Positions 9,921 to 51,064 are shown, numbered from the stretch's first letter. The stretch: 64,000 nt of DNA from an uncultured Phycisphaerales bacterium (GCA_964620445.1 CAZUHB010000013.1:5077-69076), one strand, 5' to 3'. Program-made: numbers and translations. Notes: generated by a model not told the origin, from the sequence alone.

Positions 9921-9945
9921 ACCGGCCGGCTCGGAAAGGGAGCGT

Positions 9946-10506
9946 TTATTCTGATCGCGAAAGTTTCTCCAGTGCCGCCTTGTACGTTTCGAGATCGCTC
10001 TCCGAGAAAAGAACGAACCTGATCGACCGAAAGGTGTGGTCATTGGCGAGCAGAAAATCCTTCACGGCCCGGAGAGCCACCGACGCGGCCTGGTCCACGG
10101 GGTACCGGTAGGCTCCGGTGGAGATCGACGGAAAGGCCACTGACCGGAGACGCTTCTCCATGGCATGGGCGAGCGAATTCCTGTAACAGGAAGCCAGGTC
10201 TTCACTGTCCGCTTCCCGCCCCCCAGACCAGATGGGCCCGACCGTGTGAATCACGTACCGCGCGCCGAGGTTGCCGCCCGTCGTGATCACTGCCTGGCCG
10301 GTGGGAAGGCCGTCGGGAAGGTTCTCGCGGATCGCGCGGCATTCGGCCAGAATCGCGCTGCCGCCGACGCGATGGATCGCTCCGTCCACGCCCCCCCCGC
10401 CGAGAAGGCTCGAGTTCGCGGCATTCACGATCGCATCCGATCGATCACGTGTGAGATCTCCCCGGACGAGTTCGATCGTCGCGCCGCCGATTTCCAAACG
10501 CGCCAT
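9946..10506 (-). CDS. Macro-domain protein (O-acetyl-ADP-ribose deacetylase, YmdB/MacroD-like)
   Basis: IELVRGDLTRDRSDAIVNAANSSLLGGGGVDGAIHR matches the macro-domain core; GGAGGA RBS ahead of the ATG at 10506. Confidence 0.8.
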   Translation of the reverse strand: MARLEIGGATIELVRGDLTRDRSDAIVNAANSSLLGGGGVDGAIHRVGGSAILAECRAIRENLPDGLPTGQAVITTGGNLGARYVIHTVGPIWSGGREADSEDLASCYRNSLAHAMEKRLRSVAFPSISTGAYRYPVDQAASVALRAVKDFLLANDHTFRSIRFVLFSESDLETYKAALEKLSRSE

Positions 10507-10523
10507 TCGGTCCTCCTCGAATC

Positions 10524-11885
10524 CTAGAGCGGTTTGTGGCCTTGCGCCCCGTCGCGCGCGCGGTCCTTTCCGCGGAGGGCGATCTTGATCGGCACTTCCT
10601 TGAAGGGGAGGGCTTCGCGAAACCGATTGCCCAGGTAGCGGCGATAATCGCGGTTGAAGAGCCGGATATCGTTCACGAACACGACAATCGTCGGTGGCCG
10701 TATATCGACTTGCATGCCGAAATAGATCTTGGCGAGCCGCGACTTGCGCAGCTGCGGCGCGCGCCGGGCCACGGCTTGCTCGAGGACCTTGTTGATCTGC
10801 GCCGTGTTCACGCGCATCGAGGCCTGGTCGTGCATTTCGGCCACGAGCTCGAAGGTCGACTCGATGTTGACGCTCTCCTTCGACGAGATGAAGGAGAGTG
10901 GCATGTAGTGGAATCCCCGCAGCCGGTCGTTGATATATTCCTCGTACTCGCCCGTGGTATGGCCCTCGGTCAGGTCCCATTTCGACACGGTCAGGACGCA
11001 AGGCTTGTAGCTCGAGATCACGAGGTCGGCGATCTTCTTGTCCACCGTGGCGATTTCGCGCGTCACGTCGAGCATGAGGATCACCACATCGGCGCGGCGG
11101 ATCGACCGTTCGGCGCGCGCCTGCCCGTAGAAATCGACCGAATCCTGTATCGCCCTCTTGCGCCGGAGCCCGGCCGTGTCGATGACAACGTAATCGCGCC
11201 CGCCGATCCGGAAGGCCACGTCGACCGAATCGCGCGTGGTGCCCGGTAGATCGGAAACGATGACGCGCTCCTCGCCGGCCAGGTAATTCACCAGCGTCGA
11301 CTTGCCCGCGTTCATCCGCCCCACCACGGCGACCTTGACCGGTTTATCGTCGCTGTCGGTCGGATCGACGTCCTCGGCCTCGGGAACGGGCATGAGGTCG
11401 TAGATCCTGTCGATGGCCGAAAACACACCCCGTCTCTCGGCAGCCGACACGGGAAGCGGTTCGCCGAATCCGAGCGAGTGAAATCCGTGGCGCAATTCCT
11501 CGAGCTGCGGCGTATCGGCCTTGTTGGCCACGAGCACCACCGGTTTGCGGCTCTTTCTGAGAAGGGCGGCCACATTCTCGTCGAGCAGTGTGCGCCCCTC
11601 GCGCACGTCGACCACGAAGATCAGCGCGTCGGCCAGGTCTATCGCCAGGGCGATCTGTTCCTCGATCTCGCCCTTGAGCAGGGTCTGATCGAAGAGGCCG
11701 ATCCCGCCCGTATCGATCAGTTCGAAGGTGCGCGCCGAATAGGTCAACTCGGCCGATATCCTGTCGCGCGTCACCCCGGCCGTGGGATCGACGATCGAGA
11801 CCCGCTTGCCGATCATGGCGTTGAAAAGTGATGATTTGCCGACATTGGGCCGGCCGACGATTGCGATAACGGGGACTTGGGGCAT
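10524..11885 (-). CDS. der: Ribosome-biogenesis GTPase Der (EngA), two GTP-binding domains plus KH-like domain
   Basis: Two G-domains (GRPNVGKSSLFN and GRMNAGKSTLVN) and a C-terminal KH-like region. Confidence 0.9.
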   Translation of the reverse strand: MPQVPVIAIVGRPNVGKSSLFNAMIGKRVSIVDPTAGVTRDRISAELTYSARTFELIDTGGIGLFDQTLLKGEIEEQIALAIDLADALIFVVDVREGRTLLDENVAALLRKSRKPVVLVANKADTPQLEELRHGFHSLGFGEPLPVSAAERRGVFSAIDRIYDLMPVPEAEDVDPTDSDDKPVKVAVVGRMNAGKSTLVNYLAGEERVIVSDLPGTTRDSVDVAFRIGGRDYVVIDTAGLRRKRAIQDSVDFYGQARAERSIRRADVVILMLDVTREIATVDKKIADLVISSYKPCVLTVSKWDLTEGHTTGEYEEYINDRLRGFHYMPLSFISSKESVNIESTFELVAEMHDQASMRVNTAQINKVLEQAVARRAPQLRKSRLAKIYFGMQVDIRPPTIVVFVNDIRLFNRDYRRYLGNRFREALPFKEVPIKIALRGKDRARDGAQGHKPL

Positions 11886-23736: not shown

Positions 23737-26700
23737 ATGAGTCCCAAACGCTCCTTCGTTGCCGCCATCATCAACAAGCCGATCACGGTCTTGATGGTCT
23801 TCCTCTCCCTCATGGGAACGGGCGTCATCGCCTACATGCGCATCCCCGTCAATCTGCTGCCCGAGGGATTCCAGTCGAGCTACGTTTCGATCTTCACTCC
23901 CTGCCCCGGTTCGTCACCCCTCGAGAACGAGGACAAGATCACCAAGCCGGTCGAGGAGATCGTCCGTTCCATCCCGGGTGTGAAGGAGATCTCCTCGTCG
24001 AGCTTCGATTCGGGAAGCAACGTCTTCGTCGAGTTCAATCCGAAGACCGACATCGATCTGGCCTACATGGAAGTGCGGGACCGGATCGAGAGGATCAAGC
24101 ACAATTTCCCCGACAGGGTCGACCGCTACTATTGCTACCGGTTCAATCTCGACACCGATCTGCCCGTGATCGCCATGGCCGTCGTTTACGACGACGACAT
24201 AGCCAATCCCTTCACGCTCGCCGAGGACATCATCGTGGCCCGGCTCGAGGGCGTGGACGGCGTGGCCCGGGTCAACGTGGACGGCCTCGTGGACGAGGCT
24301 GTTCGGGTCTTCCTCGATCCGTCCAAGGTGCAGGGACACAATGTCAATCTCTACGACCTGGTCACCCGCATGGGAAGGGACAATTTCACCATGCCGGCGG
24401 GACGGATCATGGACGGCGAACGGCGCTACAATCTACGCGTCGATTCCCAGTACAGGAGTCTGGCCGAGGTCGAGGAGTACCCTGTCAACCGTGATCTCGA
24501 TATCAACGATGTGGGCGAGGTCGTGCTCGGACGCTCCTACCGCGACAGCGTGATGCGCGTCAACGGCATGCAGGGACTCTTCTTCGGCATCTCCAAGGAG
24601 TCGCAGAAGAACACCGTCGAGGTCTGCCGTTCGATCGAGGCCGAGATCGCCCGCCTCGAGAAGGAACCGCGGCTCGAGGGATTCGAGTTCTTCGTCTACA
24701 TGAACCAGCGCGAGATCATCGAGTCCTCTCTCGACGTTCTCAAGACCTCGATGGCCTGGGGCGGGGCGTTCGCGCTGATCGTGCTCTATCTCTTCCTGAG
24801 GCACAAGCGCGCCACTCTCATCGTGGCGCTCGCCATCCCCACGTCGATCTTGATGGCCCTCGTCGTCGTTTTCTTCGCCGGACACACGATCAACATCCTC
24901 TCTCTGGCGGGTTTCACACTCGCCGTGGGAATGCTGGTCGACAACGCCATCGTGGTGACGGAGAACATCTTCCGCCGCAGATCAACGGGCGGCTCGCCGG
25001 CCGAGGCATCGGCCCAGGGCGCGAACGAGGTGGGCACCGCCATTCTGATGGCCACGTGCACGACGATCGTGGTTTTCCTGCCGCTCATCTTCTTTCAGGA
25101 TGATCAGGATCTGCGCCTCGTTCTGGCCGAGGTCGGCCTGCCGATCTCCTTTTCACTGATCGCGTCCCTCTTCACCGCTCTCGGTTTCATCCCCCTGGCC
25201 ACGACCTACCTGATCTGGAGAGGCCGAAAGAACGCGAACGCCATGCCGGCGTTTCTCGAGGCCTACAAGAAGCGGAGCCGTCTGTCGCGCGGTTACGAGC
25301 GGACCATGAGCTGGGTGATGCGGCACCGGCTCGGGGCGGTCCTGATTGCCCTCATCGTCCTCGGGACGACCGACACGGCGCAGAAGAAGATGAACAAGGC
25401 GCTCGAGGAGTCGGGCGGCGGCCACGGCGTCACGGTCAGGGTCGATCTGCCGTCCCATTTCAATCTCGACGAGGCGAACGATATTTTCAGAAAGCTCGAG
25501 GCTTTCACCGAGGAGCGCTTCGACGAGTACGAACTCGACGCATACCTGACCATCTTCGACAACGAAGACGGCCGCCTCATGTATTTCCCGAGGCCGGGCG
25601 CCGACCTGATGAAACTCAAGGAGCTCCCGCGCAAGGTTCAGAAAGAGCTCCCCCGCTTCGCGGGCGTCACCTACGACCTGCGCATCGAGGGCGCCGACGA
25701 TTCGCGCAAGGAATTCCGTATCGAGATCACCGGCCCGGACAGCCAGGTCCTCTCCGAGATCGCATTCGATCTGCGCGACAAGCTGAAGGAAATCGAAGAG
25801 ATCACCAATGTCCGCACCGACATCGAAAAGGGCCGCAACGAGGTCCAGATCGAGGTGGACCGCGAACTGGCCGCCAAGTTCGGCGTCGATCCGGCGGTGC
25901 TGCGCGGAACAGTCGCCTGGGGGCTCGGCGGGCAGCGCCTCCCCGACTACATGGCAAACGGCGACGAGATCAGGATGCAGCTCGAGTACGAGGAAGCCCT
26001 GGTCGAGAGCCTCGAGCTGATCCGCAACATGGAGATCACCTCGAATCAGGGCACGCGGCTGCCGCTCGCCTCGATGGCCAACCTCACCGTGACCAAGGGG
26101 CCGGCCGTGATCAGGCGCCAGAACGGCAACACCACGATGGGAATCTCGGCGACACCGATCACCGACAACGTCTACACGGTGTCGCGCAAGGTGTCCGAGC
26201 TCATGGACGGCTACACCTTTCCGCGCGGTTACTCGTGGGTCGAAAAGGGCGGCGCCGCCGAATTCGAGGAGCAGGCCGAGGAGATCATGAAGGCTTTCGG
26301 CATGTCGGTGGCGCTTGTTTTCATTCTCATGGGCATCCTCTTCGAGTCGTTCATCCTTCCGCTCACGGTGCTGCTGTCGATTCCGTTCGCCGTTCTGGGC
26401 GGCATGTGGCTGCTCGCGATCACCGGTGTTCCGCTCGATATCAACGGTATGGTCGGTTTCATCCTCCTCGCCGGGATCGTGGTGAACAACGCCATCGTGC
26501 TCATCGACCATATCAACCGGTTGCGACGATCGGGCCTGTCCAGGCTGGAAGCCGTGATCAAGGGCGGCCGCGAACGGCTGAGGCCGATCATGATGACCGC
26601 CCTCACCACGATCTTCGGACTGCTGCCCATGGCGGTGCCGGAGTGGTTCTCCTCCGGCGAGGCGGGCAGTGTCTTTTCCTACAGATCGCTGGCGATCGTG

Positions 26701-26880
26701 GTCCTCGGCGGGCTGGCCTTCTCCACGGTGTTCACCGTTTTCGTCATCCCCCTCGCCTACACCCTCTTCGACGACCTCGGCAACGTGCTGCGCAAGCTCC
26801 TCGTGGGCAACGTGAAAAACCTGCGGACCGCCCGCTTTGGAAAGTTCATTGCCGAAAGCGGCCACGATCTCGACATCTGA
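23737..26880 (+). CDS. RND efflux transporter permease subunit (AcrB/HAE1-like), 1047 aa
   Basis: 12-TM RND architecture with two large periplasmic loops and typical TM4/TM10 regions; no adjacent periplasmic adaptor or outer-membrane factor. Confidence 0.85.
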   Translation: MSPKRSFVAAIINKPITVLMVFLSLMGTGVIAYMRIPVNLLPEGFQSSYVSIFTPCPGSSPLENEDKITKPVEEIVRSIPGVKEISSSSFDSGSNVFVEFNPKTDIDLAYMEVRDRIERIKHNFPDRVDRYYCYRFNLDTDLPVIAMAVVYDDDIANPFTLAEDIIVARLEGVDGVARVNVDGLVDEAVRVFLDPSKVQGHNVNLYDLVTRMGRDNFTMPAGRIMDGERRYNLRVDSQYRSLAEVEEYPVNRDLDINDVGEVVLGRSYRDSVMRVNGMQGLFFGISKESQKNTVEVCRSIEAEIARLEKEPRLEGFEFFVYMNQREIIESSLDVLKTSMAWGGAFALIVLYLFLRHKRATLIVALAIPTSILMALVVVFFAGHTINILSLAGFTLAVGMLVDNAIVVTENIFRRRSTGGSPAEASAQGANEVGTAILMATCTTIVVFLPLIFFQDDQDLRLVLAEVGLPISFSLIASLFTALGFIPLATTYLIWRGRKNANAMPAFLEAYKKRSRLSRGYERTMSWVMRHRLGAVLIALIVLGTTDTAQKKMNKALEESGGGHGVTVRVDLPSHFNLDEANDIFRKLEAFTEERFDEYELDAYLTIFDNEDGRLMYFPRPGADLMKLKELPRKVQKELPRFAGVTYDLRIEGADDSRKEFRIEITGPDSQVLSEIAFDLRDKLKEIEEITNVRTDIEKGRNEVQIEVDRELAAKFGVDPAVLRGTVAWGLGGQRLPDYMANGDEIRMQLEYEEALVESLELIRNMEITSNQGTRLPLASMANLTVTKGPAVIRRQNGNTTMGISATPITDNVYTVSRKVSELMDGYTFPRGYSWVEKGGAAEFEEQAEEIMKAFGMSVALVFILMGILFESFILPLTVLLSIPFAVLGGMWLLAITGVPLDINGMVGFILLAGIVVNNAIVLIDHINRLRRSGLSRLEAVIKGGRERLRPIMMTALTTIFGLLPMAVPEWFSSGEAGSVFSYRSLAIVVLGGLAFSTVFTVFVIPLAYTLFDDLGNVLRKLLVGNVKNLRTARFGKFIAESGHDLDI

Positions 26881-27026: not shown

Positions 27027-28016
27027 ATGGCGCAAAAGCCGCCCTCCTACGAGACGCCTCTCACGACCCTTCTCGGTATCGATTACCCGCTCATTCAGGG
27101 CGGAATGATCTGGTGCGCCGGCAGGGATCTGGCCGCGGCCGTTTCCAACGCGGGAGGGCTCGGCCTCATCGGCGCGGGCTCCATGAAGCCCGACATCCTC
27201 GAGCACCACATCGACAAGACGCGCTCGCTCACCGATCGGCCCTACGGTGTCAACCTGCCAATCACCTACCGCCACATCCCTGACTGTGTCGAACTCGTCA
27301 TTGAGAAAAAGGTGCCTGTCGTTGTGACCTCGGCGGGCTCGCCAAAGAGATACACCGCCCTGTTCAAGGGGGCGGGGATGAAGGTGCTTCATGTCACGTC
27401 CACGCCGGAGCTGGCCGTCAAATGCCAGGGCGCGGGCGTCGACGCCGTGGTGGTGGAAGGATTCGAAGCGGGCGGCCACAACGGCCGCGACGAGATCACC
27501 ACATTCTGCCTCGTGCCCCAGACCGTCGATCTCCTGGAGATCCCGGTCGTGGCCGCGGGAGGCATCGCGGACGGACGGGGCATGGCGGCGGCCCTGGCCC
27601 TGGGCGCCGACGGCGTCCAGGTCGGTTCCCTGTTCGCGGCATCGGCGGAGTCTTCCGCCTCGGACGCCTACAAGCAAGCCGTGGTGGAGGCGGGACCGAC
27701 GGCGACCCGCCTCCTGCTGAAGAGCCTCATGCCCACGCGAATGATCGTCAATGAATTCGCGCGCCAGGTCCAGGAAGCCGAATCTGCCGGAGCGTCGTCG
27801 GCCGAGCTCGAGAACCTTCTCGGCAAGGGCCGCGCCAAGAAGGCTATATTCGACGGCGATCTCGCCGAGGGCGAAATCGAGGTCGGCCAGGTCTCGGGCC
27901 TCATCGACCGCGTGAGCAGCGCAGAGAGGATCGTCTGGCAGATGATCGACCGGTGCCGCGCGATCCTGCCGGCCTGGCCCGGCCATTCGCGGCGCGCTGG
28001 AGGATCGACGCAATGA
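27027..28016 (+). CDS. Nitronate monooxygenase / FMN-dependent enoyl-reductase-like (NMO family, TIM barrel)
   Basis: IQGGMIWCAGRDLAAAVSNAGGLGLIGAG and VAAGGIADGRG motifs; real start at 27027 inside a longer spurious ORF. Confidence 0.8.
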   Translation: MAQKPPSYETPLTTLLGIDYPLIQGGMIWCAGRDLAAAVSNAGGLGLIGAGSMKPDILEHHIDKTRSLTDRPYGVNLPITYRHIPDCVELVIEKKVPVVVTSAGSPKRYTALFKGAGMKVLHVTSTPELAVKCQGAGVDAVVVEGFEAGGHNGRDEITTFCLVPQTVDLLEIPVVAAGGIADGRGMAAALALGADGVQVGSLFAASAESSASDAYKQAVVEAGPTATRLLLKSLMPTRMIVNEFARQVQEAESAGASSAELENLLGKGRAKKAIFDGDLAEGEIEVGQVSGLIDRVSSAERIVWQMIDRCRAILPAWPGHSRRAGGSTQ

Positions 28017-29341
28017 GAGTCCTCACCTTTTCCCTGCTCCTTCTCGTCACGGCCGTCGCCTCTCCCCAGGACCGGATCGAGAGAGCCCGGCAGAAAATGG
28101 CCGACGCGAGGGTGAATCTCGACTCCGCCGAAAAGGCGCTGATCAAGGCGTACACCGTTCTGGAACTGGAGTACGAAAAGATATCGGGCCCCAACTGCCC
28201 CGACTTTCTCCGCACCCTCTCCGACGTCTGGGCCGGGCAGGAAAAGGAGATCAAGAAGATCTGGGGCAATCTCTCACGGCTCGGAAGACGGATCAGCGAG
28301 AGGCGGTTCGAGGAGGAGATTCATGACCTCCTTCTCGACAAAGCGTCCGACATCACCCGCGTCCCGCCTCAGCTCATCGTTCCTTTTCTGCGCCTCGCCA
28401 CGGCGACCGCCTATGACGCCATGCGGCATTCGGCCCCCTTCGGCAAAACGGAGATACTCCCCGAGCTGCAGAAGATCCTGACGATACGCACACCCTTTTA
28501 CGCGTTCTGGAACGAGAGTCTCCTGGCCGATATCGAGGAAGCGAAAGTCTTCGCCGAGGCGAACGATCGGTTTGCCGAGGCCAAGCACTCCGTGGACCGG
28601 ATCCTCCACCCCCATCGGTACGACTCGAGGGGCCGCCGTTCCCCGCCCGGAATGATCGTGGTCGAGGGCGGAAACTACACGTTGGGACCGAACACCGGCT
28701 GGGAGAAGAAACGGCGCAAGGTGAGGATCGCGGAGATGTTCATCGACAAGTACGAGGTAACGAACAAGGAGTTCAACATCTTCCTCCGCACCCTCGACGA
28801 GGATCTTCGCCGCAAGTACCTCCCTTATTTCTGGCCGGCCGACTCGCGCGGGCGGCGCTATTATCCGGACAAACGGGCCGACCATCCCGTGATCGGCGTG
28901 TCATGGGAAGCGGCCGATGCCTATGCGCGCTGGAAAGAAAAAAGACTCCCCACGGAGGACGAGTGGGAAGTCGCGGCCACGGGTGGGGACGGCCGCCTCT
29001 ATCCCTGGGGAGACCGTTTCGATGTCCACGCCTGCAACTCGCGCGAGTCGGCGCGGGGTGCCACCGCCGAGGTGGGCAGCTTTTCGAGTGGCGTGTCGCC
29101 CTTCGGATGCTATGACATGGCTGGCAATGCGGCGGAGTGGACGTCGACCGACCAGGACGGCAAGACGGTCGTGTTCACCGAGGGAGCGATCCTGAACGTG
29201 GCTATCCGGGGCGGCAGTTATCTCACGGACGCCTCGCGCGCCTCCTGTCGTTACCGATGGATGACTCCCATCAATCCCTACGAAGGGAGCAGACCATCGG
29301 CCAAGGCGATCGGTTTCAGATGTGCGAGGGACGCGCGATGA
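28013..29341 (+). CDS. Secreted FGE-sulfatase (formylglycine-generating enzyme) domain protein with N-terminal helical domain
   Basis: Signal peptide; C-terminal FGE/SUMF1 fold (HPVIGVSWEAADAYARW, YPWGD, GNAAEWT, RGGSY); ATGA overlap with the NMO stop. Confidence 0.75.
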   Translation: MRVLTFSLLLLVTAVASPQDRIERARQKMADARVNLDSAEKALIKAYTVLELEYEKISGPNCPDFLRTLSDVWAGQEKEIKKIWGNLSRLGRRISERRFEEEIHDLLLDKASDITRVPPQLIVPFLRLATATAYDAMRHSAPFGKTEILPELQKILTIRTPFYAFWNESLLADIEEAKVFAEANDRFAEAKHSVDRILHPHRYDSRGRRSPPGMIVVEGGNYTLGPNTGWEKKRRKVRIAEMFIDKYEVTNKEFNIFLRTLDEDLRRKYLPYFWPADSRGRRYYPDKRADHPVIGVSWEAADAYARWKEKRLPTEDEWEVAATGGDGRLYPWGDRFDVHACNSRESARGATAEVGSFSSGVSPFGCYDMAGNAAEWTSTDQDGKTVVFTEGAILNVAIRGGSYLTDASRASCRYRWMTPINPYEGSRPSAKAIGFRCARDAR

Positions 29342-29532
29342 ACGCGGTGCAGAAGACGGAATCCTTCGACTCGAGGCCCGGACGGCGTTCATGGGCGGCA
29401 GTTCTCGTTCTGCTGGGAGAGGCTCTGCTCGAGGGGATCAAGCTTCCCTTCAGGCTTGCCGTCTACTTGACAAGACGAAAAGCGATCACCCGTATGCTGC
29501 GTCAGATGCTCGAACGCAGCCGGGAGGCTTGA
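29338..29532 (+). CDS. Small hypothetical protein (64 aa) with hydrophobic core, coupled to the FGE gene
   Basis: ATGA overlap with the FGE stop; hydrophobic stretch AAVLVLLGEALL. Confidence 0.3.
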   Translation: MNAVQKTESFDSRPGRRSWAAVLVLLGEALLEGIKLPFRLAVYLTRRKAITRMLRQMLERSREA

Positions 29533-29617
29533 TCTCCGCGTCACGGCCGGCGCGCCGAAGGATCGCAACAGACGCGATCTATTTGATCTCGACGAAACGA
29601 CTTTCCGAAGGAGCGGA

Positions 29618-30739
29618 ATGCGCACATTCAGGCTACTGCACGAAGAAGAGGAGTTTTATCTTCTCGATGGCGAATCGGAAGACGAACAATGCCGTACGAT
29701 TACGGTTCTCGTCGCCTGCGACAGGGTTCCCGGTTTCGAGAAGACCCCCCACCTGGTCATCCCCACCGACAAGGGACAGCGCGTGGCGGTGGCGCGATGG
29801 ATCGACGATCGTGTCGAGGCTCTCGTCGAGTGTACACCGGCAAGGCTGAAGGTCTACAAGGCTATCCTGAAGAACTATCTCGAGGACTGCCTCGCGGGCG
29901 ACAGCACCAAGGGGGTTGCCTACTATTACGAAAAGCAAGGCAACGAGTTCGTCTATGACATCTCCCAGTCCCACCCGCACGGTCTGGTCATCAAGATTTA
30001 CAGCCGTAAAGACCTGGTACACAAACGAACGGCCGCGCACCTTTCGGAGGGCGGCCCGTTCGAGACATTCCAGACGAACGACCTCCGCGAGTTGCTGACC
30101 CGAGCGGCCAACGAAGGGTATGCGGGCGCGATCCTCGATGAAAGCGACCCGATCTATTTCTGCATCGACAGGAGCGAGGCTCTCCATTTCCTGCGCCTCT
30201 CTCAAAACCTGCACGACGAGATCGAGGAGACGCTCCTCGGGTCGCGAGGCGATTGGAGCGCACCTTTCGGAGACCTCGATCTCGAGATCGTCGAGAACCA
30301 GGACGTCTGCGACAGGATCATGATCCGGCGTCTGGGGGATATCCCCTTTCACCGGGAGGGGGCTGACGACGGAACCGTGGAGACCGTGTTCTGCGCCATC
30401 GAAAGGGCCGGCGAGCCGGGGCGGTTGATGGGTTTCGAGCTCGAAGAGAGTTCGTCGTCCACGAGCACGCAGAGCATGGCGGCCATCTTTCTCGACCGCC
30501 GCTCGGCTCTCGAATTCATGGCCGAACGCGAGCGGGACGACTTTACCTTGGTCGACGTCGATGATCTCGGTGCGCTCTTGCGAGCCGCCGATCGCGACGA
30601 TCTCACCGTTTTCCTCGAGCCGGGCAACCACCGGTCGGCGTCGGGAACTTTCTGGCTCAACGGGAACGACATCATTTTCGACTCCTTCTCGGGTTTCTGG
30701 AAGATCGACGCCTCGAACTCTTTTGTCCACCTCTCCTGA
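29618..30739 (+). CDS. Hypothetical acidic protein (373 aa), no recognisable domain
   Basis: Long ORF with good codon usage in the same operon; cytoplasmic; no motifs recognised. Confidence 0.6.
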   Translation: MRTFRLLHEEEEFYLLDGESEDEQCRTITVLVACDRVPGFEKTPHLVIPTDKGQRVAVARWIDDRVEALVECTPARLKVYKAILKNYLEDCLAGDSTKGVAYYYEKQGNEFVYDISQSHPHGLVIKIYSRKDLVHKRTAAHLSEGGPFETFQTNDLRELLTRAANEGYAGAILDESDPIYFCIDRSEALHFLRLSQNLHDEIEETLLGSRGDWSAPFGDLDLEIVENQDVCDRIMIRRLGDIPFHREGADDGTVETVFCAIERAGEPGRLMGFELEESSSSTSTQSMAAIFLDRRSALEFMAERERDDFTLVDVDDLGALLRAADRDDLTVFLEPGNHRSASGTFWLNGNDIIFDSFSGFWKIDASNSFVHLS

Positions 30740-30786
30740 TCGCCTTGGACGCGTGAGGAGATGAGCCAACGACTGCGGCACGATAG

Positions 30787-32019
30787 ATGAAAAAGAACTC
30801 GCAAATCACCAGGATACTCGACCTGGCCAGACAGGTTCCACCGGTCCCGTCGCTGTCGAGCGAGGCCGACGAAAGCGCCTTGCGGAATGCGTCCGACGCG
30901 ATTGCCGACCTCGCGGCGGGCGACGGGGCGATCGGCGGGGCCGAAAAAGAGCTCCTCTCCGAAGGTCCTCCCCTTCCTGTCGGGCAGATCCTGGCGATCA
31001 AGCTCGCCCGTTCGCTGTCGGCCGTGCGGGACCTTGATCGGCCGGCCACCCTGCGCGTCATCTTCGCCATGTACAGGGAACGGAACAGGATGCATCGGGC
31101 GGCGCGGCTCAACCCCCACGGCGAAGATTTCCTGCGAAACAAGATCGGCCAACTCGAACACCTCTTTGCCCGGAGCCCGGCGGACTGGACCCTCACCGCT
31201 GTCGACGACGGTTGTCCGGAGGGGAGCGGCCGCCTCGCGCAGGGGATCATCGAGAAATCTTTTCCCCACTACGCCGAGGCACGCAAGGTGGACGTTCTCT
31301 TTCTCGAGGAGGCGATCGCCGGGGGCGAACCGGAAGCGGCCGGGATTCCCGATGCGACGACGAGCACCAAGGGCGGGAGCATTCTCTACGGTCTCCGAAA
31401 ACTCGCTGCCCGATCCGAACCGGACGACGTGCTCCTCTTCACCGACGCCGACCTCTCCACTCATCTGGGGCAGGCGGGTTTCCTCATGGCGCCGATCGTG
31501 AACGGTCAAGCCGACGTCGTCGCCGGTTCGCGGCGCGAGACCGACTCGGCCCAGGTCAAATCCACCGCACGGAGCAGCCGCGGCAGGCTGTTCATTCACC
31601 TCTGGAAGCGGATGCTGCCCGTCCTGCGGGAGATCATCGATTCCCAGGCGGCGTTCAAGGCGTTTCGCGCGGGACCCATGAAAACCGTCCTGGCCGCCGC
31701 GAGCGAATTCGGTTTCGCCATCGACATCGAATTGCTCCTCCTCGCCCACGTGCAAGGTCTCGGGTTCGCCAAGTCGGGCATCTGCTGGATCGATTCGGAA
31801 ATCGAGTCATCGACCACCGGGCAGGAGACGCACCTGACAATGCTCAAATCGGTGGCCCAGTTCCGGCGGCGGCACTTGCCCCCCGACCTGCCCGGCGGCG
31901 AGATTGCGCTCATGGTGGAATCGTTCACCTTTGCCGAATGGAACGATTTGCTCGAAAATCCTCCCCCGGCGATACTGACCGCGTCGCTCGACCGGCTGGG
32001 CGATCCCGAAATCATGTGA
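30787..32019 (+). CDS. Divergent glycosyltransferase family 2-like protein
   Basis: GT-A-like elements VIFAMYRERN, VDDGCPEGSG and a DxD-like LLFTDADL, with insertions and a 60-aa N-terminal extension. Confidence 0.45.
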   Translation: MKKNSQITRILDLARQVPPVPSLSSEADESALRNASDAIADLAAGDGAIGGAEKELLSEGPPLPVGQILAIKLARSLSAVRDLDRPATLRVIFAMYRERNRMHRAARLNPHGEDFLRNKIGQLEHLFARSPADWTLTAVDDGCPEGSGRLAQGIIEKSFPHYAEARKVDVLFLEEAIAGGEPEAAGIPDATTSTKGGSILYGLRKLAARSEPDDVLLFTDADLSTHLGQAGFLMAPIVNGQADVVAGSRRETDSAQVKSTARSSRGRLFIHLWKRMLPVLREIIDSQAAFKAFRAGPMKTVLAAASEFGFAIDIELLLLAHVQGLGFAKSGICWIDSEIESSTTGQETHLTMLKSVAQFRRRHLPPDLPGGEIALMVESFTFAEWNDLLENPPPAILTASLDRLGDPEIM

Positions 32020-32112: not shown

Positions 32113-33243
32113 TCATTCCGAGAGTCGTTCCAGGCATTCCGCTGCTGCTCGCCTCACAGATATCGGCAGATGTCCCGCCTTGCGGATCAGGTCGAGCTGT
32201 TTTCGGCTTTCGCGCGTGTTGATCCGCGCCAGCCCCAGGACAGCCGCCGTGCCGCCCTTGGAATCGTAGGCGTGGAGAGCGAGATCTCCCAGGGCGGCGA
32301 CCGCACCGCCCGTCCGGTCCGCCGTGAGCGCCGCGGCGGCAGCTTCCTGCACTCCGGCGAGCTTCATCCACATCACCCCCCGGATCGTGGCCACGCCCTT
32401 GCCGCGCCCCATGTTGCCGAGCACGTAGAGCACGTTGGTGCGTGTTGTTTTGTCGATTTTTCCGAAATCGGCGACCAGCGCGGCGGGCAGGCCCTCCTCG
32501 CTGCTCCCCGCCAGGATCGCGGCGATCTGATCCCGGTGGAAGCTCCCCGACGGACCGCGCACCGTGCTGATCAGCTCCCTTTCGAGGCCGGCGGGCCTCA
32601 CCTCTCCGAGCGCATCGAGAAGGCAGCGCTGGAGTTCGCAGTTCGGCGCTGTCTGGCGGAAACGTTCGAGCAGCCTCGTCCTGTCGAGCCCGTCGAGAAG
32701 CTCGAGGCTCCCCTTCGTTCGGACCGCGTCGATGAGGGTGCTGCGCAGAAGAGTGGGTTTCCCCTGGCCGAGTGCGATCCGGAGAAGTCCGGCAACGGCC
32801 TCGGACTGCTCTTCGAGATCCGCGTCGACCACCGAGGCTTGAAGCCGGGCCGCCTCGACCAGGAGCCGCCCCTCGTCGCCGCTGGCGCAAAGCGCGCTCA
32901 GCGGCGATGCCATGGCCATGTAGAGCGGCCCCGAGTAGGGCACCGCCGGAACGTGGCCGAGCTGGCGCAGAAAGAGGAGCATCTTGCCGTGGTCCTCGAG
33001 ATGGACGTGGTAGCAGACGTGGTTCGCCATGAGGATTCCGAAGGATCCTTCGGGCAGTGCGCCCTTGATCACCTCCGGACCGTCGAGACGGTAGAGATCG
33101 AAACCCCCGCCGTCCGCCCGCTCCTTGTGGAGCGTTCCGACCACGACGAGATCCGCCTCTGCAAGGTGAAAGCCGATCGAGTTGCCGCTCGCGGCCGCGA
33201 CCGCGAGCAGACCGATGGCGATGGACAGAATTCCCCTTTTCAT
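32113..33243 (-). CDS. Secreted HEAT/PBS-lyase repeat protein
   Basis: Signal peptide; repeated Ala/Leu-rich helical hairpins in the C-terminal half. Confidence 0.5.
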   Translation of the reverse strand: MKRGILSIAIGLLAVAAASGNSIGFHLAEADLVVVGTLHKERADGGGFDLYRLDGPEVIKGALPEGSFGILMANHVCYHVHLEDHGKMLLFLRQLGHVPAVPYSGPLYMAMASPLSALCASGDEGRLLVEAARLQASVVDADLEEQSEAVAGLLRIALGQGKPTLLRSTLIDAVRTKGSLELLDGLDRTRLLERFRQTAPNCELQRCLLDALGEVRPAGLERELISTVRGPSGSFHRDQIAAILAGSSEEGLPAALVADFGKIDKTTRTNVLYVLGNMGRGKGVATIRGVMWMKLAGVQEAAAAALTADRTGGAVAALGDLALHAYDSKGGTAAVLGLARINTRESRKQLDLIRKAGHLPISVRRAAAECLERLSE

Positions 33244-33292: not shown

Positions 33293-35923
33293 CTAATTGT
33301 TGTAGAACGCCTTTTCCTTCAAGTATGCCTGATTCAGCCTGTTGAACCGTGTTCCCACGGCGTTCGTGTAGGTGAAATTCGTTGACGGCGCCATGATGTT
33401 CACGTTCGGCGATTGAAAGAGCTCCGGATAGGACGACATGCTGATGTGGTTCGACGTCGATCCGGGAAAATTCAGATTGTCGCCGCCATAGAGACCGTTC
33501 GGCATCTTGCCGTTGACGGCCACGCCCATGGAGTGGCCCATCTCGTGCGAGCAGAGCACCGCAATGTAGCGCGCCAGCCGATCGACGGCCGTCAGGATCG
33601 CATCGCGCCGGATCGCGGCATCGCCCGTCACCGAGGGACCCGTACCTGCGATGTCCATGAGGATGTCGCTGTCGTACATGTGGGTTCCGACCGGATAACC
33701 GCGGCCGGGAATGAAATCGTCGAAGGTGAGCCGGAAGAGGCCGTAGTAGGAACCGTTCACCTCGTAGATGAAAATCCTCGTGGTGAAGATGCCGAGATTG
33801 GTCCCCGGATTGTAGGGGCTCGATCCCTTGTACAGGGTGTCGTTGTCCTGGTTCTTGTTGCACCGGTCGATGAACGCCACGCCGAGAGCGCCAATGTCGC
33901 TGTCGCCGCCGATCGCCATGAGCGATCTGGGAAAGGAATCATAGCTCACCTGCGGGGATTTCCCCGGAAACGACGCGGACTGGCAAATTCCGAAATCGAT
34001 GTTGGCCCCTTCGAAAATCACGTCCTTCAACTCGCTCTTGACCCCGTCGACGATCATCGTACGCATCAGCTCGTTCGAGTCGTACTCCGTGCCGGGAACG
34101 TCGATCGGATAGTCGCAGTTGAGGCCGAACAGCTTGAGATCTTCGTCGAAATCGGCTTTGCCGTTCGAATTCCTGGCAGCCGTCACCGAGATGTAGCTCG
34201 AACCAGAAATCGAAATGTTGTAAAGATCGCGCCCGAACACGAGAAACCACATCTGGCTCGAATTGACGGTGGTCCTGAACGGCCGCTGCGCTGCCGTGGG
34301 CGTTTTCACCCGGAACTGATAGACGGCCTGATCCGATTCGTTGCCGAGTATATCCTCGACCGTGGCGTTGACCGTCACCATTCCGGCCACGAAGGACATC
34401 CCCTCGGGCATCTCGAAGGAGGCGCCGTCCTCGTCGGCGATCACCTCGGTCAGATAGGGGACGAGGTTCGTCCCGGCCGGGATCGTGGTGCCGTCGTTGG
34501 CGGCCGGCACCGATGCGGTGAGCACGATGGTTTCGGGATCGACGCCGGCGCCGCCCTCGTCATGGTATTCGAGATCGAAACCGAAACCCATTCGCGGCAC
34601 CTGCATGGTGCCGCCCGCGGCGCCGTCGCCGTTCAGGCATTCGGGAACGTTGTTGACGGTGAGCAGATCGATGACCGGCTCCTCGTACTCCATGGCGATA
34701 ATGGTGACATAGTCGTCGATGCCGGGCGAAGCGGGCAGGTAAGCCGCGTTTCCCGCCAGATCGATCACGGCGTCGTTTTCGTGGGACACGTTGATCTTCG
34801 ACGATCCGAGTGTGAAGGACGGATTCCAGCCGAGGGTGATCATGAGGGCGTTCGGATTCGCCTCGAGAATCTGGATCGGCAGAGGAGATCCGAACCCGAG
34901 CGTATCTCCCGCGTACCAGAAATCGACATCGTCATCATCAAACACCGCACCGCCATCCGCGTCCATCCTCTCATCGAAGAGCAGGATGAGCGGCCAGCCG
35001 GTCTGCGGATTCCCCGATCCGTAGTAAACCGCGGCCTGCAGCTTGGGCAGGTCGTCGGGAATGCTGGCGCCATCGCCGTCCACCGTGGCCTGGGCCGTTC
35101 CATCGGATGCCGTGTCGATCTCGTTCTCGAGCAGGTCTCGAACGTTCGATACCGCGATCTCTGCAAGAGTACCGAAACGCAAGTTGGCCGAATCGTCCCC
35201 ATCGAGAATGATCGAGGTCATCTTTTCCACTGCATCGTAGGAGATGGTGGAACCGGACGGGATGGCCAGGGGATCACCCTGGGGATTCTCGAGGGAGAAA
35301 TTGGCCAGATCAACGGCGTCAGCGGCATTCACGGGCTCGTCGAAGATGATTTCGAGAATGTCGTTCTCTTCGTTCTTCACTGCCGTGGCCGTGAAAGCGT
35401 CAACCGCGGGAGAGTCCGAGTCGCCCCGGTTGTTGAGCACGATGATGAAGGGAGAGGTCGCCGCCTCGATCCCCTTGATCCGGATGCGGAGCTTGACGCA
35501 GTTCAGATTCACGTCCGGTAGATCGCCTATAGCGTCCGAGTCCCAGGCGAAAACATGATCCACTCCCCCCGGCCCGGCGGCGAGCGCGTTCAGCCCGTCG
35601 CTCGGATTCGGTTCGCCGCCGAGCGGATCGGTCAGATCCTCGGTGCAATCCGAGAAGGACTCGCCGCCGTCGGTAGAAAAATCGAGAGTGATGTTGGCCG
35701 ACGAGCGCTTGGCGCTGTAAAGTGTGTATTCAACGAGGATTGTACCATCTTGGTCGGGATCGGTCTCTCCAGACAGATCGCCGAAGGACGCAGAAGTTGC
35801 CGAGGATCGGCTCACCGGACCGTTTCCGCCGCCGCCTCCCCCGCCGCCGCAGCCCGCAAGTGATAGAATCATGGTTGCGATCGCCGCGAGCGCCCCGAGA
35901 TGATATGTTTGATTTGTCGTCAT
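33293..35923 (-). CDS. Large lipoprotein zinc metalloprotease (zincin, HExxH)
   Basis: Signal peptide plus lipobox LAGC, a Gly linker, beta-rich repeats, and a C-terminal HEMGHSMGV zincin motif. Confidence 0.65.
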   Translation of the reverse strand: MTTNQTYHLGALAAIATMILSLAGCGGGGGGGGNGPVSRSSATSASFGDLSGETDPDQDGTILVEYTLYSAKRSSANITLDFSTDGGESFSDCTEDLTDPLGGEPNPSDGLNALAAGPGGVDHVFAWDSDAIGDLPDVNLNCVKLRIRIKGIEAATSPFIIVLNNRGDSDSPAVDAFTATAVKNEENDILEIIFDEPVNAADAVDLANFSLENPQGDPLAIPSGSTISYDAVEKMTSIILDGDDSANLRFGTLAEIAVSNVRDLLENEIDTASDGTAQATVDGDGASIPDDLPKLQAAVYYGSGNPQTGWPLILLFDERMDADGGAVFDDDDVDFWYAGDTLGFGSPLPIQILEANPNALMITLGWNPSFTLGSSKINVSHENDAVIDLAGNAAYLPASPGIDDYVTIIAMEYEEPVIDLLTVNNVPECLNGDGAAGGTMQVPRMGFGFDLEYHDEGGAGVDPETIVLTASVPAANDGTTIPAGTNLVPYLTEVIADEDGASFEMPEGMSFVAGMVTVNATVEDILGNESDQAVYQFRVKTPTAAQRPFRTTVNSSQMWFLVFGRDLYNISISGSSYISVTAARNSNGKADFDEDLKLFGLNCDYPIDVPGTEYDSNELMRTMIVDGVKSELKDVIFEGANIDFGICQSASFPGKSPQVSYDSFPRSLMAIGGDSDIGALGVAFIDRCNKNQDNDTLYKGSSPYNPGTNLGIFTTRIFIYEVNGSYYGLFRLTFDDFIPGRGYPVGTHMYDSDILMDIAGTGPSVTGDAAIRRDAILTAVDRLARYIAVLCSHEMGHSMGVAVNGKMPNGLYGGDNLNFPGSTSNHISMSSYPELFQSPNVNIMAPSTNFTYTNAVGTRFNRLNQAYLKEKAFYNN

Positions 35924-48157: not shown

Positions 48158-51064
48158 CTATGACTTCCGATCGGCGCGGCCCGATCCTGGTCCGCAGCAG
48201 CACCGGTCGGAAGATTCCGCGGAGTGTTCCTCGGGTTTCACGATGCGCTCGATCGCCTCCAGCAGTTCTTTCGGGTCGATCGGCTTGGAGAGGTAATCGT
48301 CCATTCCACCCTCGAGGCAGCGCTCGCGGTAACCGGTCAGGGCATGGGCGGTCAGGGCCAGGATCGGAATGTGCCCGCCTGTTTGGCGCTCCTTTTCACG
48401 GATGGCGGCCGTGGCTTCGAAACCGTCCATGACCGGCATCTGAATGTCCATGAGCACGAGATCGAAGGAATCGCGAGCCAGCATATCGAGGGCTTCCTTG
48501 CCGTTCCCGGCCACGGTGACCCTGTGCCCCTGCTTCTGAAGGAGTCTGACAGCCATCTTCTGGTTGACCTCGTTGTCCTCCGCCAGAAGAATGCCCAGCG
48601 GCCGTGTGAACGCGAACGGTTCGTCCCTTCCCGGTCGCTCCTCGTCAGGGCCTTCGGTCTTGTCGAAGCCCATGACGCGCAGGATCGTTTCCAGAAGCTC
48701 CGAATGAGAAAAAGGTTTGGTCAAGCAGGCGTCTATCCCGAGATCGCGCCAGCTCGAAGCCTTGCCATGGAGACCGGCCGAGGTGAGCAGGATGATCCGG
48801 GTGCCGCCGAAATCGGGGATCTTTCTGATCTTTTCCACGAGCTGGAAACCGTCCATGACCGGCATATCGCCGTCGACGAGGAGGAGGTCGATATTCTCGC
48901 GCACCACGCATGCGCGCCACATGGTGGCGATGACCGCCTTACCGCTGCTCACCACGATCGGCTCCACCTTCCATGAACGGAGTGTCTCGTCGAGAATCTG
49001 CCGGTTCGTCGCATTGTCATCGACGACGAGCACGGCGAGTTCCTTGAGCTGTTCCGGCTGGAGAGGGATGCGATCCTCGGCCGAAGTCGTGCCGATCCCG
49101 AAGCGGGCGGTGACGGAAAATGTCGACCCCCTGCCCACGTCGCTCTCCACCCTGATACGACCGCCCATCATCCGGGCCAGGTGGTGGGAGATGGCCAGAC
49201 CGAGACCGGTGCCGCCGAACTCGCGCGTCGTCGACGTGTCGGCCTGGGAAAAGTTGTCGAAGATGAGATGTTTCTTCTCCGACGGAATACCGATCCCCGT
49301 GTCGGAGACGGAGATCTCGAGCGACACCGAATCGACGAGGAATTCGCTGACAGTGATCCGGACGACGATCTCGCCGTTTTCGGTGAACTTGATCGCATTC
49401 CCGACGAGGTTGGTCAGAATCTGCCCCAATCTCACCGGATCTCCCACGAGGCACCGGGGGACGCTCTGGTGCACGAAAAGCAACATCTCGAGTTTTTTTT
49501 CGGCTGCTCGCAGAGCGAGGGGTTTCAGCGTCTTGCTGAGACACTCACTCAGCTCGAATTCGATCGATTCGATCTCCAGCTTCTGCGCTTCGATCTTGGA
49601 AAAATCCAGAATGTCGTTGATGACTCTCATCAGGCTGCCGGCGCTTTCACGAACCGTTTCGAGATACTCCCTCTGTTCCGGTGTCAATTCGGTTCTGAGG
49701 GCCAAATCGGTCATTCCGATGATGCCGTTCATCGGCGTACGGATTTCATGGCTCATGTTCGCCAGGAACTCGCTCTTCGCGCGGTTTCCGGCATCAGCAG
49801 CGTTCTTTGCGAGCCTCAGGTCTTCCTCGGCTTTTTTGCGATCGGTGATATCCTTCGCGATGATCACGATTCCTACAGGAACATCTTGCTGGTCGTGCAT
49901 CGCTGACGCGGAGAGGATGATCGGGATCTCGGCTCCGTCACAGGCGATGAGTTCGGTTTCGTGATCCTTGAGCTTTGGGCTCTTCAGGACCGAAACGATC
50001 GCACCTCGGGCCATGATGGTCGCCAGATCCTCCCCCACGAGATCATCGGGGCCGTACCGGAGCAGTTCGAGAGTGACATCGTTGACCGAACGGATCGTTC
50101 CGTCCGGATTGACGACGATCACGCAGTCGAGGAAATTGGCGATCACGTTCTCGATGTAGGATTTCGATTCGTCGAGGTCTTCCAGGATATTCAGGGTCGC
50201 TTTCTGCATGAGAGTCAGATCGCGGGTCCGTTCCTCGACCTTGTACCTGAGCTCCGCCTTGGACGTCTCCAGATCGACCCAGGTCCGGCTCAGCTGCTCG
50301 ATCGTCCTGTTGACGACCGCGCCCAGCTTGGCGATCAGCTCATTCGTCGATCCCTCGCGGACCCGCGCGTCGAGGTGCCCGTCGGAAACCCGGTTCAGCA
50401 CCTCGAAATTCTCCGACAGGCCGAGGGCGAGCTCCATGCTCGTCGATTCCATCTCCTCCACCAGTCCCTGAAGAAACGCTGCCTGCTTGTTGACGAGAAC
50501 GCCCAGCTTGGCAATGAGTTCGTTCTCCGTGCTCTCGGGAGCCCGGGCGGTGCGGTCACCCGACGCGATCCGGTTGAGGGCGTCGTAGACCTCACAGATG
50601 CCGTATGCCAGCTCCTGATGCTGGGTGGTCATGGAGTGGTAGTTCCCGGCGAATTCGTTGAGCAGATCCTGCAGCTTGATGAGGAGTTCGCTGTTCGATC
50701 CGAATTCGATCCTGCAATCCGTTTTTCCCCTGGCCAGTTCCTTGAGCATGGTGAAGGTCTGCGAAAGGCAGAGCGCCAAGTCGAGGCTCGTGTCGGCCAT
50801 CTCCTTTTCGCGTTTCTTGATCAGCCGGCTGAAATCTTTGAACTGGCTGTTGACGAGTCCCATGGTCGCGTCGAGGTCGGTATCGTCGACGCTGGAAGCG
50901 AAGTAGGCGCAATCGAGGCATGTTTCGATCTTGGAGAGGGCCTCTCCCTGGGTCTCGTCTCTACAAAGGGTACCGGAGACCAACCAGCACCGATGGTCGT
51001 CCACGCCGTACGCGGGGCACTCCGTCTTCGCGCAATCGAGATGCTCCCAGCAATAACCCTTCAT
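48158..51064 (-). CDS. Cytoplasmic hybrid sensor histidine kinase: Cys-rich N-terminal module, three tandem HAMP-like repeats, PAS, HisKA, HATPase_c and two REC domains
   Basis: MKGYCWEHLDCAKTECP... Cys cluster; repeated ELALxLS...NELIAKLG units; SHEIRTPMN H-box; two DxxxMPxMDG receiver domains; GGAGG RBS. Confidence 0.85.
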   Translation of the reverse strand: MKGYCWEHLDCAKTECPAYGVDDHRCWLVSGTLCRDETQGEALSKIETCLDCAYFASSVDDTDLDATMGLVNSQFKDFSRLIKKREKEMADTSLDLALCLSQTFTMLKELARGKTDCRIEFGSNSELLIKLQDLLNEFAGNYHSMTTQHQELAYGICEVYDALNRIASGDRTARAPESTENELIAKLGVLVNKQAAFLQGLVEEMESTSMELALGLSENFEVLNRVSDGHLDARVREGSTNELIAKLGAVVNRTIEQLSRTWVDLETSKAELRYKVEERTRDLTLMQKATLNILEDLDESKSYIENVIANFLDCVIVVNPDGTIRSVNDVTLELLRYGPDDLVGEDLATIMARGAIVSVLKSPKLKDHETELIACDGAEIPIILSASAMHDQQDVPVGIVIIAKDITDRKKAEEDLRLAKNAADAGNRAKSEFLANMSHEIRTPMNGIIGMTDLALRTELTPEQREYLETVRESAGSLMRVINDILDFSKIEAQKLEIESIEFELSECLSKTLKPLALRAAEKKLEMLLFVHQSVPRCLVGDPVRLGQILTNLVGNAIKFTENGEIVVRITVSEFLVDSVSLEISVSDTGIGIPSEKKHLIFDNFSQADTSTTREFGGTGLGLAISHHLARMMGGRIRVESDVGRGSTFSVTARFGIGTTSAEDRIPLQPEQLKELAVLVVDDNATNRQILDETLRSWKVEPIVVSSGKAVIATMWRACVVRENIDLLLVDGDMPVMDGFQLVEKIRKIPDFGGTRIILLTSAGLHGKASSWRDLGIDACLTKPFSHSELLETILRVMGFDKTEGPDEERPGRDEPFAFTRPLGILLAEDNEVNQKMAVRLLQKQGHRVTVAGNGKEALDMLARDSFDLVLMDIQMPVMDGFEATAAIREKERQTGGHIPILALTAHALTGYRERCLEGGMDDYLSKPIDPKELLEAIERIVKPEEHSAESSDRCCCGPGSGRADRKS

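Follow-up and report, generated by a model that had tools for sequence, protein, structure and literature searches.

A conserved three-gene cassette of planctomycete-type genomes combines an FGE-fold protein lacking the catalytic cysteine pair with a predicted membrane microprotein and an acidic protein of a new family

A compact three-gene cassette, encoding a protein with an FGE-type domain (FGE-like), a small predicted membrane protein (the microprotein) and an acidic, soluble protein that represents a new family (X), is conserved as a unit in planctomycete-type genomes. It was studied in a stretch of 64,000 nucleotides with ∼60% GC from an uncultured Phycisphaerales bacterium (GCA_964620445.1, CAZUHB010000013.1:5077-69076), hereafter the window, on whose whole length coordinates are counted. 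An earlier sequence-only reading had treated these three genes and the two that enclose them as a single five-gene operon; the conserved unit is the triad of FGE-like, microprotein and X, not the five genes. We propose, with a probability of about 0.5, that the triad is an undescribed module whose three products form an envelope-spanning complex, in which the FGE-fold would be non-catalytic and X would serve as an adaptor or chaperone. No description of the cassette was found in the searchable literature, in PADLOC or in family libraries. What is new about it is that an FGE-fold subfamily occurs together with the microprotein and X, each of a protein family not described before, over a narrow taxonomic range; the outer genes are ordinary.

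Results

A three-gene unit conserved in 17 loci

The proteins of the window were mapped onto each of 17 distinct loci, which form the comparative set (numbered with the prefix L). The order and strand of FGE-like, microprotein and X are constant in 17 of 17, at identities of X that range from 26 to 76%. Wherever enough upstream sequence is available, X is directly preceded by an FGE-like gene of the same strand, and a small open reading frame (ORF) with a common sequence signature always sits between the two (17/17 loci). The flanks of the triad vary between loci and include genes for RecG, an EPSP-synthase-fold protein, TatD, a radical SAM protein, a TrkA-type channel, DUF5695 and others. Comparison of gene neighbourhoods, which the sequence-only reading had proposed, hence yielded a constant core in changing surroundings. 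That reading had also allowed that homologues might never co-occur elsewhere and that each might have an unrelated housekeeping function; the core co-occurs in 17 loci, and a housekeeping assignment was obtained for gene 1 of the five, which is FabK-like.

X is rare. Among 185,579 species genomes it is carried by 9, labelled Phycisphaerales or Planctomycetota in seven cases, Pseudohongiellaceae in one and only "bacterium" in another. It forms 10 clusters among 5.8 billion proteins, and was represented by 50 sequences in an exhaustive profile search of 1.84 billion proteins. A metagenome scan provided seven further loci, two of them new cassettes (L020/L021 and L023). The cassette was found in planctomycete-type genomes only, and the named hits are mostly Phycisphaerales or Planctomycetota metagenome-assembled genomes (MAGs). 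The carrier genomes are all MAGs, and no cultured strain was identified among them. The contig JBLIMM010000065.1 (L018/L003), from a MAG binned as Pseudohongiellaceae (gammaproteobacterial), carries the cassette and shares RecG/MoxR/BatA synteny with a Phycisphaerales locus (L017); the contig was probably binned wrongly.

The FGE-like protein lacks the catalytic cysteine pair

The first protein of the triad matches the FGE-sulfatase family (PF03781) with an E value of 2e-46 over residues 211-439, covering profile positions 2-255 of 255, and starts with a hydrophobic, signal-like segment (aa 1-19), in agreement with the earlier description of a signal-bearing FGE-fold protein. It also has a family-specific N-domain of ∼190 aa with an invariant FWN motif in an alignment of 16 members, in which the motifs RLPTE-EWE, YPWG, DMAGN-EWT, RGG and GFRC of the FGE domain are conserved as well. 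The signal region was checked for a lipoprotein cysteine and contains no Cys. A search for homologues by the N-domain alone returned one fragment and was uninformative, since it missed the known orthologues.

In FGE, the catalytic, copper-binding cysteine pair is located in a C-terminal GGS(Y/F)xC....C motif (C336 and C341 of the human protein). In this region the FGE-like protein of the window reads GGSYLTDASRASCRYR. The first catalytic cysteine is absent in 16/16 aligned members, and the second position is occupied by C, A, S, G or T. With the pair absent, formylglycine- or sulfoxide-forming chemistry is therefore unlikely, and the oxidase function that had been ascribed to the protein is not upheld. 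No DinB domain was found in it with Pfam or NCBIfam, and the genes beside the cassette in the window include no sulfatase. Planctomycetes and other bacteria have very many FGE-sulfatase domains without the catalytic cysteines, most of them with no assigned role.

Among NCBIfam models, the best match is to GldK (TIGR03525), with 79 bits at a cut-off of 350, and the match to EgtB (TIGR03440), with 60 bits at a cut-off of 360, is confined to the FGE-like part; GldK, EgtB, SenA and PvdO all match far under their cut-offs. The best sequence matches in the PDB are ToxD (7spq, 8e-26), SUMF2 (1y4j, 3.7e-21) and CalU17 (∼5e-21), which come ahead of FGE itself. ToxD and CalU17 are proteins of natural-product pathways, and SUMF2 (pFGE) is an inactive paralogue of FGE. 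The simplest reading of the domain would be a binding or structural role.

The same matches can be read in favour of catalysis. If the triad were an enzymatic module, the FGE-like protein would act in the periplasm as an oxidase or tailoring enzyme of non-FGE type, like PvdO, ToxD or CalU17, and X a cytoplasmic scaffold or carrier for the substrate or its precursor. The rank of ToxD and CalU17 above FGE, the weak matches of the PvdO and EgtB models and the strict conservation of many polar residues in the FGE domain would be consistent with such a module. However, the conserved residues are general structural motifs of the fold, neither the cysteine pair nor a DinB or iron-binding domain is present, X has no similarity to catalytic domains, and the triad has no conserved non-ribosomal peptide synthetase, polyketide synthase, precursor-peptide or transporter genes beside it. 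We consider an enzymatic module rather unlikely, and favour a non-catalytic FGE-fold domain as the exported part of an envelope-spanning complex.

A microprotein with a conserved charged motif

The microprotein of the window consists of a hydrophobic core (aa 20-44), with the invariant residues E32, P37 and R39, and a basic tail. The motif, an acidic residue at −5, proline at 0 and Arg or His at +2 followed by a cluster of R/K, is conserved in 17/17 loci and the ORF is therefore a real gene, although it has no match in Pfam or NCBIfam. Across the loci the length varies from 45 to 100 aa, and the shortest forms (45-47 aa) begin at the hydrophobic core. The core comprises ∼28 residues, with a Kyte-Doolittle maximum (19-aa window) of 1.4-2.3, and the tail is short, basic and amphipathic with a charge of mostly +2 to +4. 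The acidic and basic residues of the motif are seven positions apart and so would lie on the same face of a helix. From the start of the shortest forms at the core and the positive-inside rule we infer an N-out/C-in topology. In about half of the loci the start of the microprotein overlaps or abuts the stop codon of FGE-like, which suggests translational coupling. One microprotein (L003, 9257-9607) has a C-terminal low-complexity tail of (QTSG)n repeats that is absent elsewhere.

Protein X belongs to a new family

X of the window has a pI of 4.65 and a net charge of −31 (pI of the family 4.1-5.3) and is soluble, with a Kyte-Doolittle maximum of 0.71. The AlphaFold2 (AF2) model (predicted local distance difference test, pLDDT, 78; predicted template modelling score, pTM, 0.68) has an N-terminal beta domain (aa 1-95) followed by module A (aa 96-215) and module B (aa 216-373), both in the order beta-alpha-beta-alpha-beta4. 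Comparison by hhalign shows modules A and B to be homologous (94-95%, E 6e-8 to 2e-7), and the motifs EGYAGA, P-x-x-HR and DSFSGxW are invariant in the family. X had been described as an acidic protein with no confident family, and this holds: it has no match in Pfam (ten members, E values up to 10), NCBIfam or PADLOC, or in sequence and profile searches of the PDB.

Remote homology did not supply a confident family. The Foldseek matches of X in the PDB are marginal, with Tic22 (4ev1) at E 3.6e-3, TTHA0547 (2z0r) at a TM-score of 0.56-0.66 of the 100-aa target, and with DR1245 ranked further down. In an hhalign comparison of module B with E. coli SseB, which is not significant, the beta-alpha-beta-alpha-beta elements are in the expected register. 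SseB has been related to Tic22 as peptide-binding chaperones and YbjN has been grouped with the chaperones of type III secretion systems (Iyer et al. 2022, PMC9503650). Membership of X in a Tic22/SseB family was considered and is not claimed, given hhalign probabilities of 0.3-7% for SseB and no Pfam match; the predicted model is marginally Tic22-like in design, and X is not placed in the Tic22 family.

Distant relatives of X (290-500 aa) are devoid of the N-terminal beta domain and do not adjoin FGE-like genes, and the N-domain of X is therefore likely a cassette-specific adaptor. For the longer relatives (∼500 and ∼760 aa), Pfam gave one weak match to Crr6 and no functional lead, and their contexts (acetate kinase/PTA; GHMP kinase) are without FGE-like genes. 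Paralogues of ∼500 aa with a C-terminal extension (P0159 in L027/L028, 8001-9491, and P0160-P0165) are encoded between acetate kinase and ACT/PTA genes. The metagenome Ga0180430 holds both the ∼500-aa paralogues and a full cassette.

The likeness to chaperones bears on a further explanation, in which X would be a dedicated cytoplasmic export chaperone for the FGE-like pre-protein, the microprotein its docking site in the membrane, and the cassette merely a means of secreting one lectin-like protein. This would agree with the marginal resemblance of X to the folds of Tic22, TTHA0547 and YbjN-type proteins, Tic22 and YbjN being described as peptide-binding chaperones, and with the strict linkage of the genes and the overlaps of start and stop codons. 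Against it, the N-terminus of FGE-like is of the ordinary Sec type, the evidence for the fold of X is weak, and, to our knowledge, other exported FGE-domain proteins, which number in the thousands, do without an X-like partner. An export chaperone is in our opinion unlikely, and X is regarded here as the putative cytoplasmic member of the envelope-spanning complex.

An extended form of the cassette

One subclade (L005, L015 and L023) has an extended cassette in the order FGE-like, microprotein, VanZ-like membrane protein, X, and an exported protein of ∼830 aa that belongs to the alkaline-phosphatase superfamily (PF00884), the start of which overlaps the stop of X in L005 and L015. The nucleophile motif of the PF00884 protein, read in L005, is T-L-P-S-I, with Thr at the nucleophile position; as this is not C/S-x-P-x-R, the protein is not a formylglycine-dependent sulfatase. 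On the strength of the L005 motif, a pairing of FGE with a sulfatase, considered because of these three loci, was rejected. A search for sulfatase substrates, suggested by the FGE fold, thus produced none beside the cassette in the window and a Thr-type PF00884 neighbour in L005. The extended variant points to an envelope-related function of the cassette, without defining what that function is.

Layout of the locus and its neighbouring genes

The five ORFs are present on the plus strand of the window (Table 1), co-directional as had been noted, and both ATGA overlaps were read directly, that between gene 1 and FGE-like as a 4-bp overlap (gcaATGAgag at 28013) and that between FGE-like and the microprotein as cgcgATGAacg at 29338. 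The remaining intergenic gaps are 146 bp between the RND gene and gene 1, 85 bp between the microprotein and X, and 47 bp between X and the glycosyltransferase (GT) gene. The GC content at third codon positions is high in all four larger genes, as for coding genes in a window of ∼60% GC. A scan for consensus terminators found no terminator-like site between gene 1 and FGE-like, FGE-like and the microprotein, or X and GT. One weak terminator-like hairpin (29560-29580, plus strand), with a 7-bp stem and a T-poor tail, lies inside the 85-bp gap; it may act as an attenuator or match by chance. A scan of the window for consensus promoters gave none, a result that is expected because the phylum does not use the sigma70 consensus. 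Rfam and tRNA scans of the window yielded nothing, and none of the seven proteins tested with PADLOC matched any model of anti-phage defence.

Table 1. Features of the window and location of the extended cassette in related loci.
Feature	Position	Strand	Size	Description
FGE-like, cassette gene 1	28013..29341	+	442 aa	FGE-fold protein, predicted to be exported; PF03781
Microprotein, cassette gene 2	29338..29532	+	64 aa	predicted membrane protein; motif kept in 17 loci
X, cassette gene 3	29618..30739	+	373 aa	acidic soluble protein, new family
Gene 1	27027..28016	+	329 aa	FabK-like flavin mononucleotide (FMN) enoyl-ACP (acyl carrier protein) reductase II; Pfam NMO, FabK structures
GT gene	30787..32019	+	410 aa	soluble GT-A glycosyltransferase as predicted; AF2 and Foldseek
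RND permease	23737..26880	+	1047 aa	Pfam ACR_tran, E 2.6e-188
Extended cassette	L005 200-4432; L015 2677-6885; L023 about 7381-11518			one subclade
Glycoside hydrolase	3597-5624	-		GH15/MGH1-like (mannosylglycerate-hydrolase-like)
HEAT-like gene	32113-33243	-	376 aa	faint HEAT repeats
876-aa gene	33293-35923	-	876 aa	no Pfam match
Histidine kinase	48158-51196	-		hybrid; HAMP-PAS-HisKA-HATPase
Large ORF	55970-63994	-	2674 aa	GH94 supersandwich, catalytic and glucoamylase-like domains

Gene 1 had been read as nitronate-monooxygenase-like. The family stands (Pfam NMO, E 1.9e-62), but the best solved structures are those of FabK: P. gingivalis FabK (4iql) matches over the full length at E 1.1e-104 and 353 bits, followed by further FabK structures (5gvj, 7l00 and 2z6i). 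Of the chains that were deposited under the names nitronate monooxygenase or 2-nitropropane dioxygenase, most reach 104-125 bits over a partial region, and PA1024, deposited as nitronate monooxygenase, reaches 195 bits over the full length. The FabK model TIGR03151 scores 316 bits over the full length, under its equivalog cut-off of 453 bits. Judged by its best solved match, gene 1 is therefore most simply a FabK-type enoyl-ACP reductase, a housekeeping enzyme of fatty-acid synthesis, and not a nitronate monooxygenase.

The 410-aa protein encoded after X is confidently assigned, on the strength of its predicted structure, as a divergent, soluble GT-A glycosyltransferase of known enzyme class, as its GT-A-like appearance had suggested. 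The AF2 model (pLDDT 91, pTM 0.91) has a GT-A fold with helical N- and C-terminal extensions, and Foldseek returned ArnC, DPMS, MpgS, GtrB and MGS, all with a probability of 1.0. A profile of GT matched DPMS (5mlz, E 6e-4) over the region from the DxD motif to the acceptor loop. The match to Pfam Glycos_transf_2 (E 0.04, 14.3 bits) is below the gathering threshold of 23.3, and many members of the GT family carry PF00535. Invariant motifs are DDxC...G, D220-A221-D222, SRR and (D/Q)xxFK. GT has no transmembrane segment and, in the AF2 model, no C-terminal helix longer than 15 residues; its only hydrophobic peak (residues 301-319) is inside the catalytic core. At least 390 relatives at 40-50% identity, spread over several phyla and present for instance in Pyrinomonadaceae and Saprospiraceae, make up the family, and in the three contexts examined (L010, L031 and L032) the neighbours are unrelated and include neither an FGE-like gene nor X. 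A mannosylglycerate-hydrolase-like glycoside hydrolase is encoded in the window at a distance of ∼25 kb from the GT gene; the fold matches of GT include mannosyl-3-phosphoglycerate and mannosylglycerate synthases.

These genes do not accompany the triad throughout. Gene 1 lies upstream of it only in the window, L007/L008/L011, L004, L014 and the contig P0007, and is missing from L006, L009 and L012, though these are otherwise syntenic. The GT gene follows X only in a clade that also shares PGI, the RND gene, the HEAT-like gene, the 876-aa gene, RuvC and IspD/F; in L001, L003, L013, L016, L017 and L019 it was not found within ∼10 kb on either side of the triad as far as the sequence reaches, nor in the shorter flanks available in L005 and L015. 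A 452-aa gene downstream in L001 was tested as a GT homologue and rejected. The RND gene precedes the triad in the window, L007, L009, L012, L014 and the P0007 contig, and absent in L001, L003, L013 and L015-L019. In the window no gene for a membrane-fusion or outer-membrane factor adjoins the RND gene, its neighbours being PGI, upstream on the opposite strand, and the FabK-like gene downstream.

In the clade of the window the cassette sits within a conserved housekeeping neighbourhood. The five-gene order is limited to this clade, which shares the housekeeping genes PGI, RuvC, IspD/F and ZnuA, and the order therefore reflects synteny at the level of the genome. The FabK-like gene, GT and RND came to lie beside the cassette, or stayed there, in one lineage; the FabK-like gene and GT are probably not functionally tied to it, and the RND permease is a neighbour by clade-level synteny only. 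In the lineage of the window, the FabK-like gene and GT are probably co-transcribed with the cassette.

Had the five genes and the RND pump formed one pathway, a secreted FGE-type oxidase and the glycosyltransferase would modify an exported substrate, the FMN oxidoreductase would provide the redox chemistry, and the pump would be the exporter. The genes are indeed co-directional with short or overlapping junctions, and their order recurs in the closest relatives (L007/L008/L011), in part in L004, and in the P0007 contig. Tight packing, however, is all that stands of the five-gene operon as a unit: outside the clade marked by PGI, RuvC, IspD/F and ZnuA the order is not seen, L006, L009 and L012 do without gene 1, distant loci have neither GT nor RND around the triad in the flanks available, and in L006 and L009 a CRP-family regulator gene splits X and GT. 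In addition, GT relatives of other phyla have unrelated neighbours, gene 1 is FabK-like, and the FGE-like protein lacks the catalytic cysteines. The modification pathway with a glycosyltransferase and the role of the RND pump, which adjoins the triad in the closest clade only and there as part of the shared PGI...RuvC-IspDF synteny, are given up with it, and we judge a common pathway very unlikely. Mere adjacency without functional meaning holds for the FabK-like gene, GT and RND, but is refuted for the triad, the order and strand of which are kept in 17/17 loci down to 26% identity while the flanks change.

The CRP-family regulator (cNMP-binding and HTH_Crp_2 domains) is encoded at 6122-6805 in L006 and at 7285-8004 in L009, and in both its gene overlaps the start of the GT gene; it may control either GT or the cassette. 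In the window, the genes for the 376-aa and 876-aa proteins run convergent to GT, and they keep their position in L006, L007, L009 and L012. Elsewhere in the window, the 2674-aa ORF resembles proteins of the cyclic beta-1,2-glucan synthase or phosphorylase type, and the hybrid histidine kinase has two matches to receiver domains.

Discussion

A module that may span the envelope

The products of the triad are predicted to be exported, membrane-bound and cytoplasmic, and the basic tail of the microprotein and the acidic X have complementary charges. In the envelope-spanning complex that we propose, the FGE-fold would have a binding or structural function in the periplasm and would not be an oxidase, and the microprotein would provide the membrane link between the FGE-like protein and X. 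The basic tail of the microprotein, which is predicted to be cytoplasmic, could recruit the strongly acidic X, which would be a peptide-binding cytoplasmic protein of the chaperone or adaptor type and of Tic22-like design. The output of the cassette is probably related to the cell envelope, as hinted at by the VanZ-like and alkaline-phosphatase-superfamily additions in one subclade.

Several points weigh against this proposal. The physical complex itself is something we infer, and the export of FGE-like and the topology of the microprotein are predictions from sequence features; the h-region of FGE-like is short, and several orthologues have a proline near the putative cleavage site. The matches to ToxD and CalU17 leave room for another catalytic role of the FGE-like domain. 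The likeness of X to chaperones consists of Foldseek E values of 3.6e-3 to 1e-2 for parts of a model with a pLDDT of 78, without support from sequence profiles or any Pfam match, and the hhalign comparison of X and its modules with SseB is not significant even for module B, which reaches 7%. Finally, the 4-bp overlap of the FabK-like and FGE-like genes indicates that FabK is probably expressed with the cassette in the lineage of the window, where a functional link to FabK is conceivable.

A more specific form of the envelope-spanning complex is possible but tentative. The triad could be a trans-envelope apparatus restricted to planctomycetes, in which the acidic-Pro-basic motif of the microprotein couples a periplasmic FGE-fold receptor or structural protein to X, a cytoplasmic tandem of chaperone-like modules, for example in signalling, ion-coupled work or remodelling of the envelope. 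If so, X would typify a protein family not known before, and the microprotein would belong to a new class of membrane adaptors. An envelope-spanning device would likewise add to what is known of the planctomycete cell envelope, which is poorly understood.

The cassette provides a strictly conserved and compact context for one FGE-fold subfamily without the catalytic cysteines and renders it experimentally tractable. The neighbours, too, receive a corrected annotation, gene 1 being most simply a FabK and not a nitronate monooxygenase and the 410-aa protein a soluble GT-A enzyme by prediction, and the apparent five-gene "pathway" is a lineage-specific juxtaposition.

Comparison with known systems

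The outer genes have close counterparts. Gene 1 aligns with FabK over its full length and differs in scoring under the TIGR03151 equivalog cut-off. GT has the GT-A fold with DxD in common with DPMS, GtrB and ArnC and with MpgS and MGS, but lacks the C-terminal transmembrane helices of DPMS, GtrB and ArnC and adds a four-helix N-terminal extension.

The FGE-like protein shares the FGE-sulfatase fold and structural motifs with FGE/SUMF1 and SUMF2. Unlike FGE, it does not keep the cysteine pair, and in this it resembles SUMF2 more than FGE; it differs further by the extra ∼190-aa N-domain and the signal-like N-terminus. A linkage to sulfatases of the Cys type (C-x-P-x-R), as for FGE, was not seen in the window or in L005. 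The sulfoxide synthases EgtB and OvoA have an N-terminal DinB-like iron-binding domain, which was not found in FGE-like.

X recalls Tic22, SseB and YbjN in that the two lobes of Tic22 resemble its two related alpha/beta modules, and Foldseek ranks 4ev1 and 2z0r first. Tic22 is located in the periplasm or intermembrane space, whereas X is predicted to be cytoplasmic and has an additional N-terminal beta domain.

PorK/GldK of type IX secretion is a structural, non-catalytic envelope protein with an FGE fold, and its partners PorL and PorM have conserved charged intramembrane residues. The cassette differs in its host (planctomycetes) and in its partners, the microprotein and X being unrelated to those of PorK; the lipoprotein cysteine of PorK is absent from FGE-like, and no homologues of PorL, PorM or PorN lie beside the cassette. 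What the two systems have in common is an FGE-fold envelope protein encoded together with a membrane protein, and PorK structures are among those matched by FGE-like.

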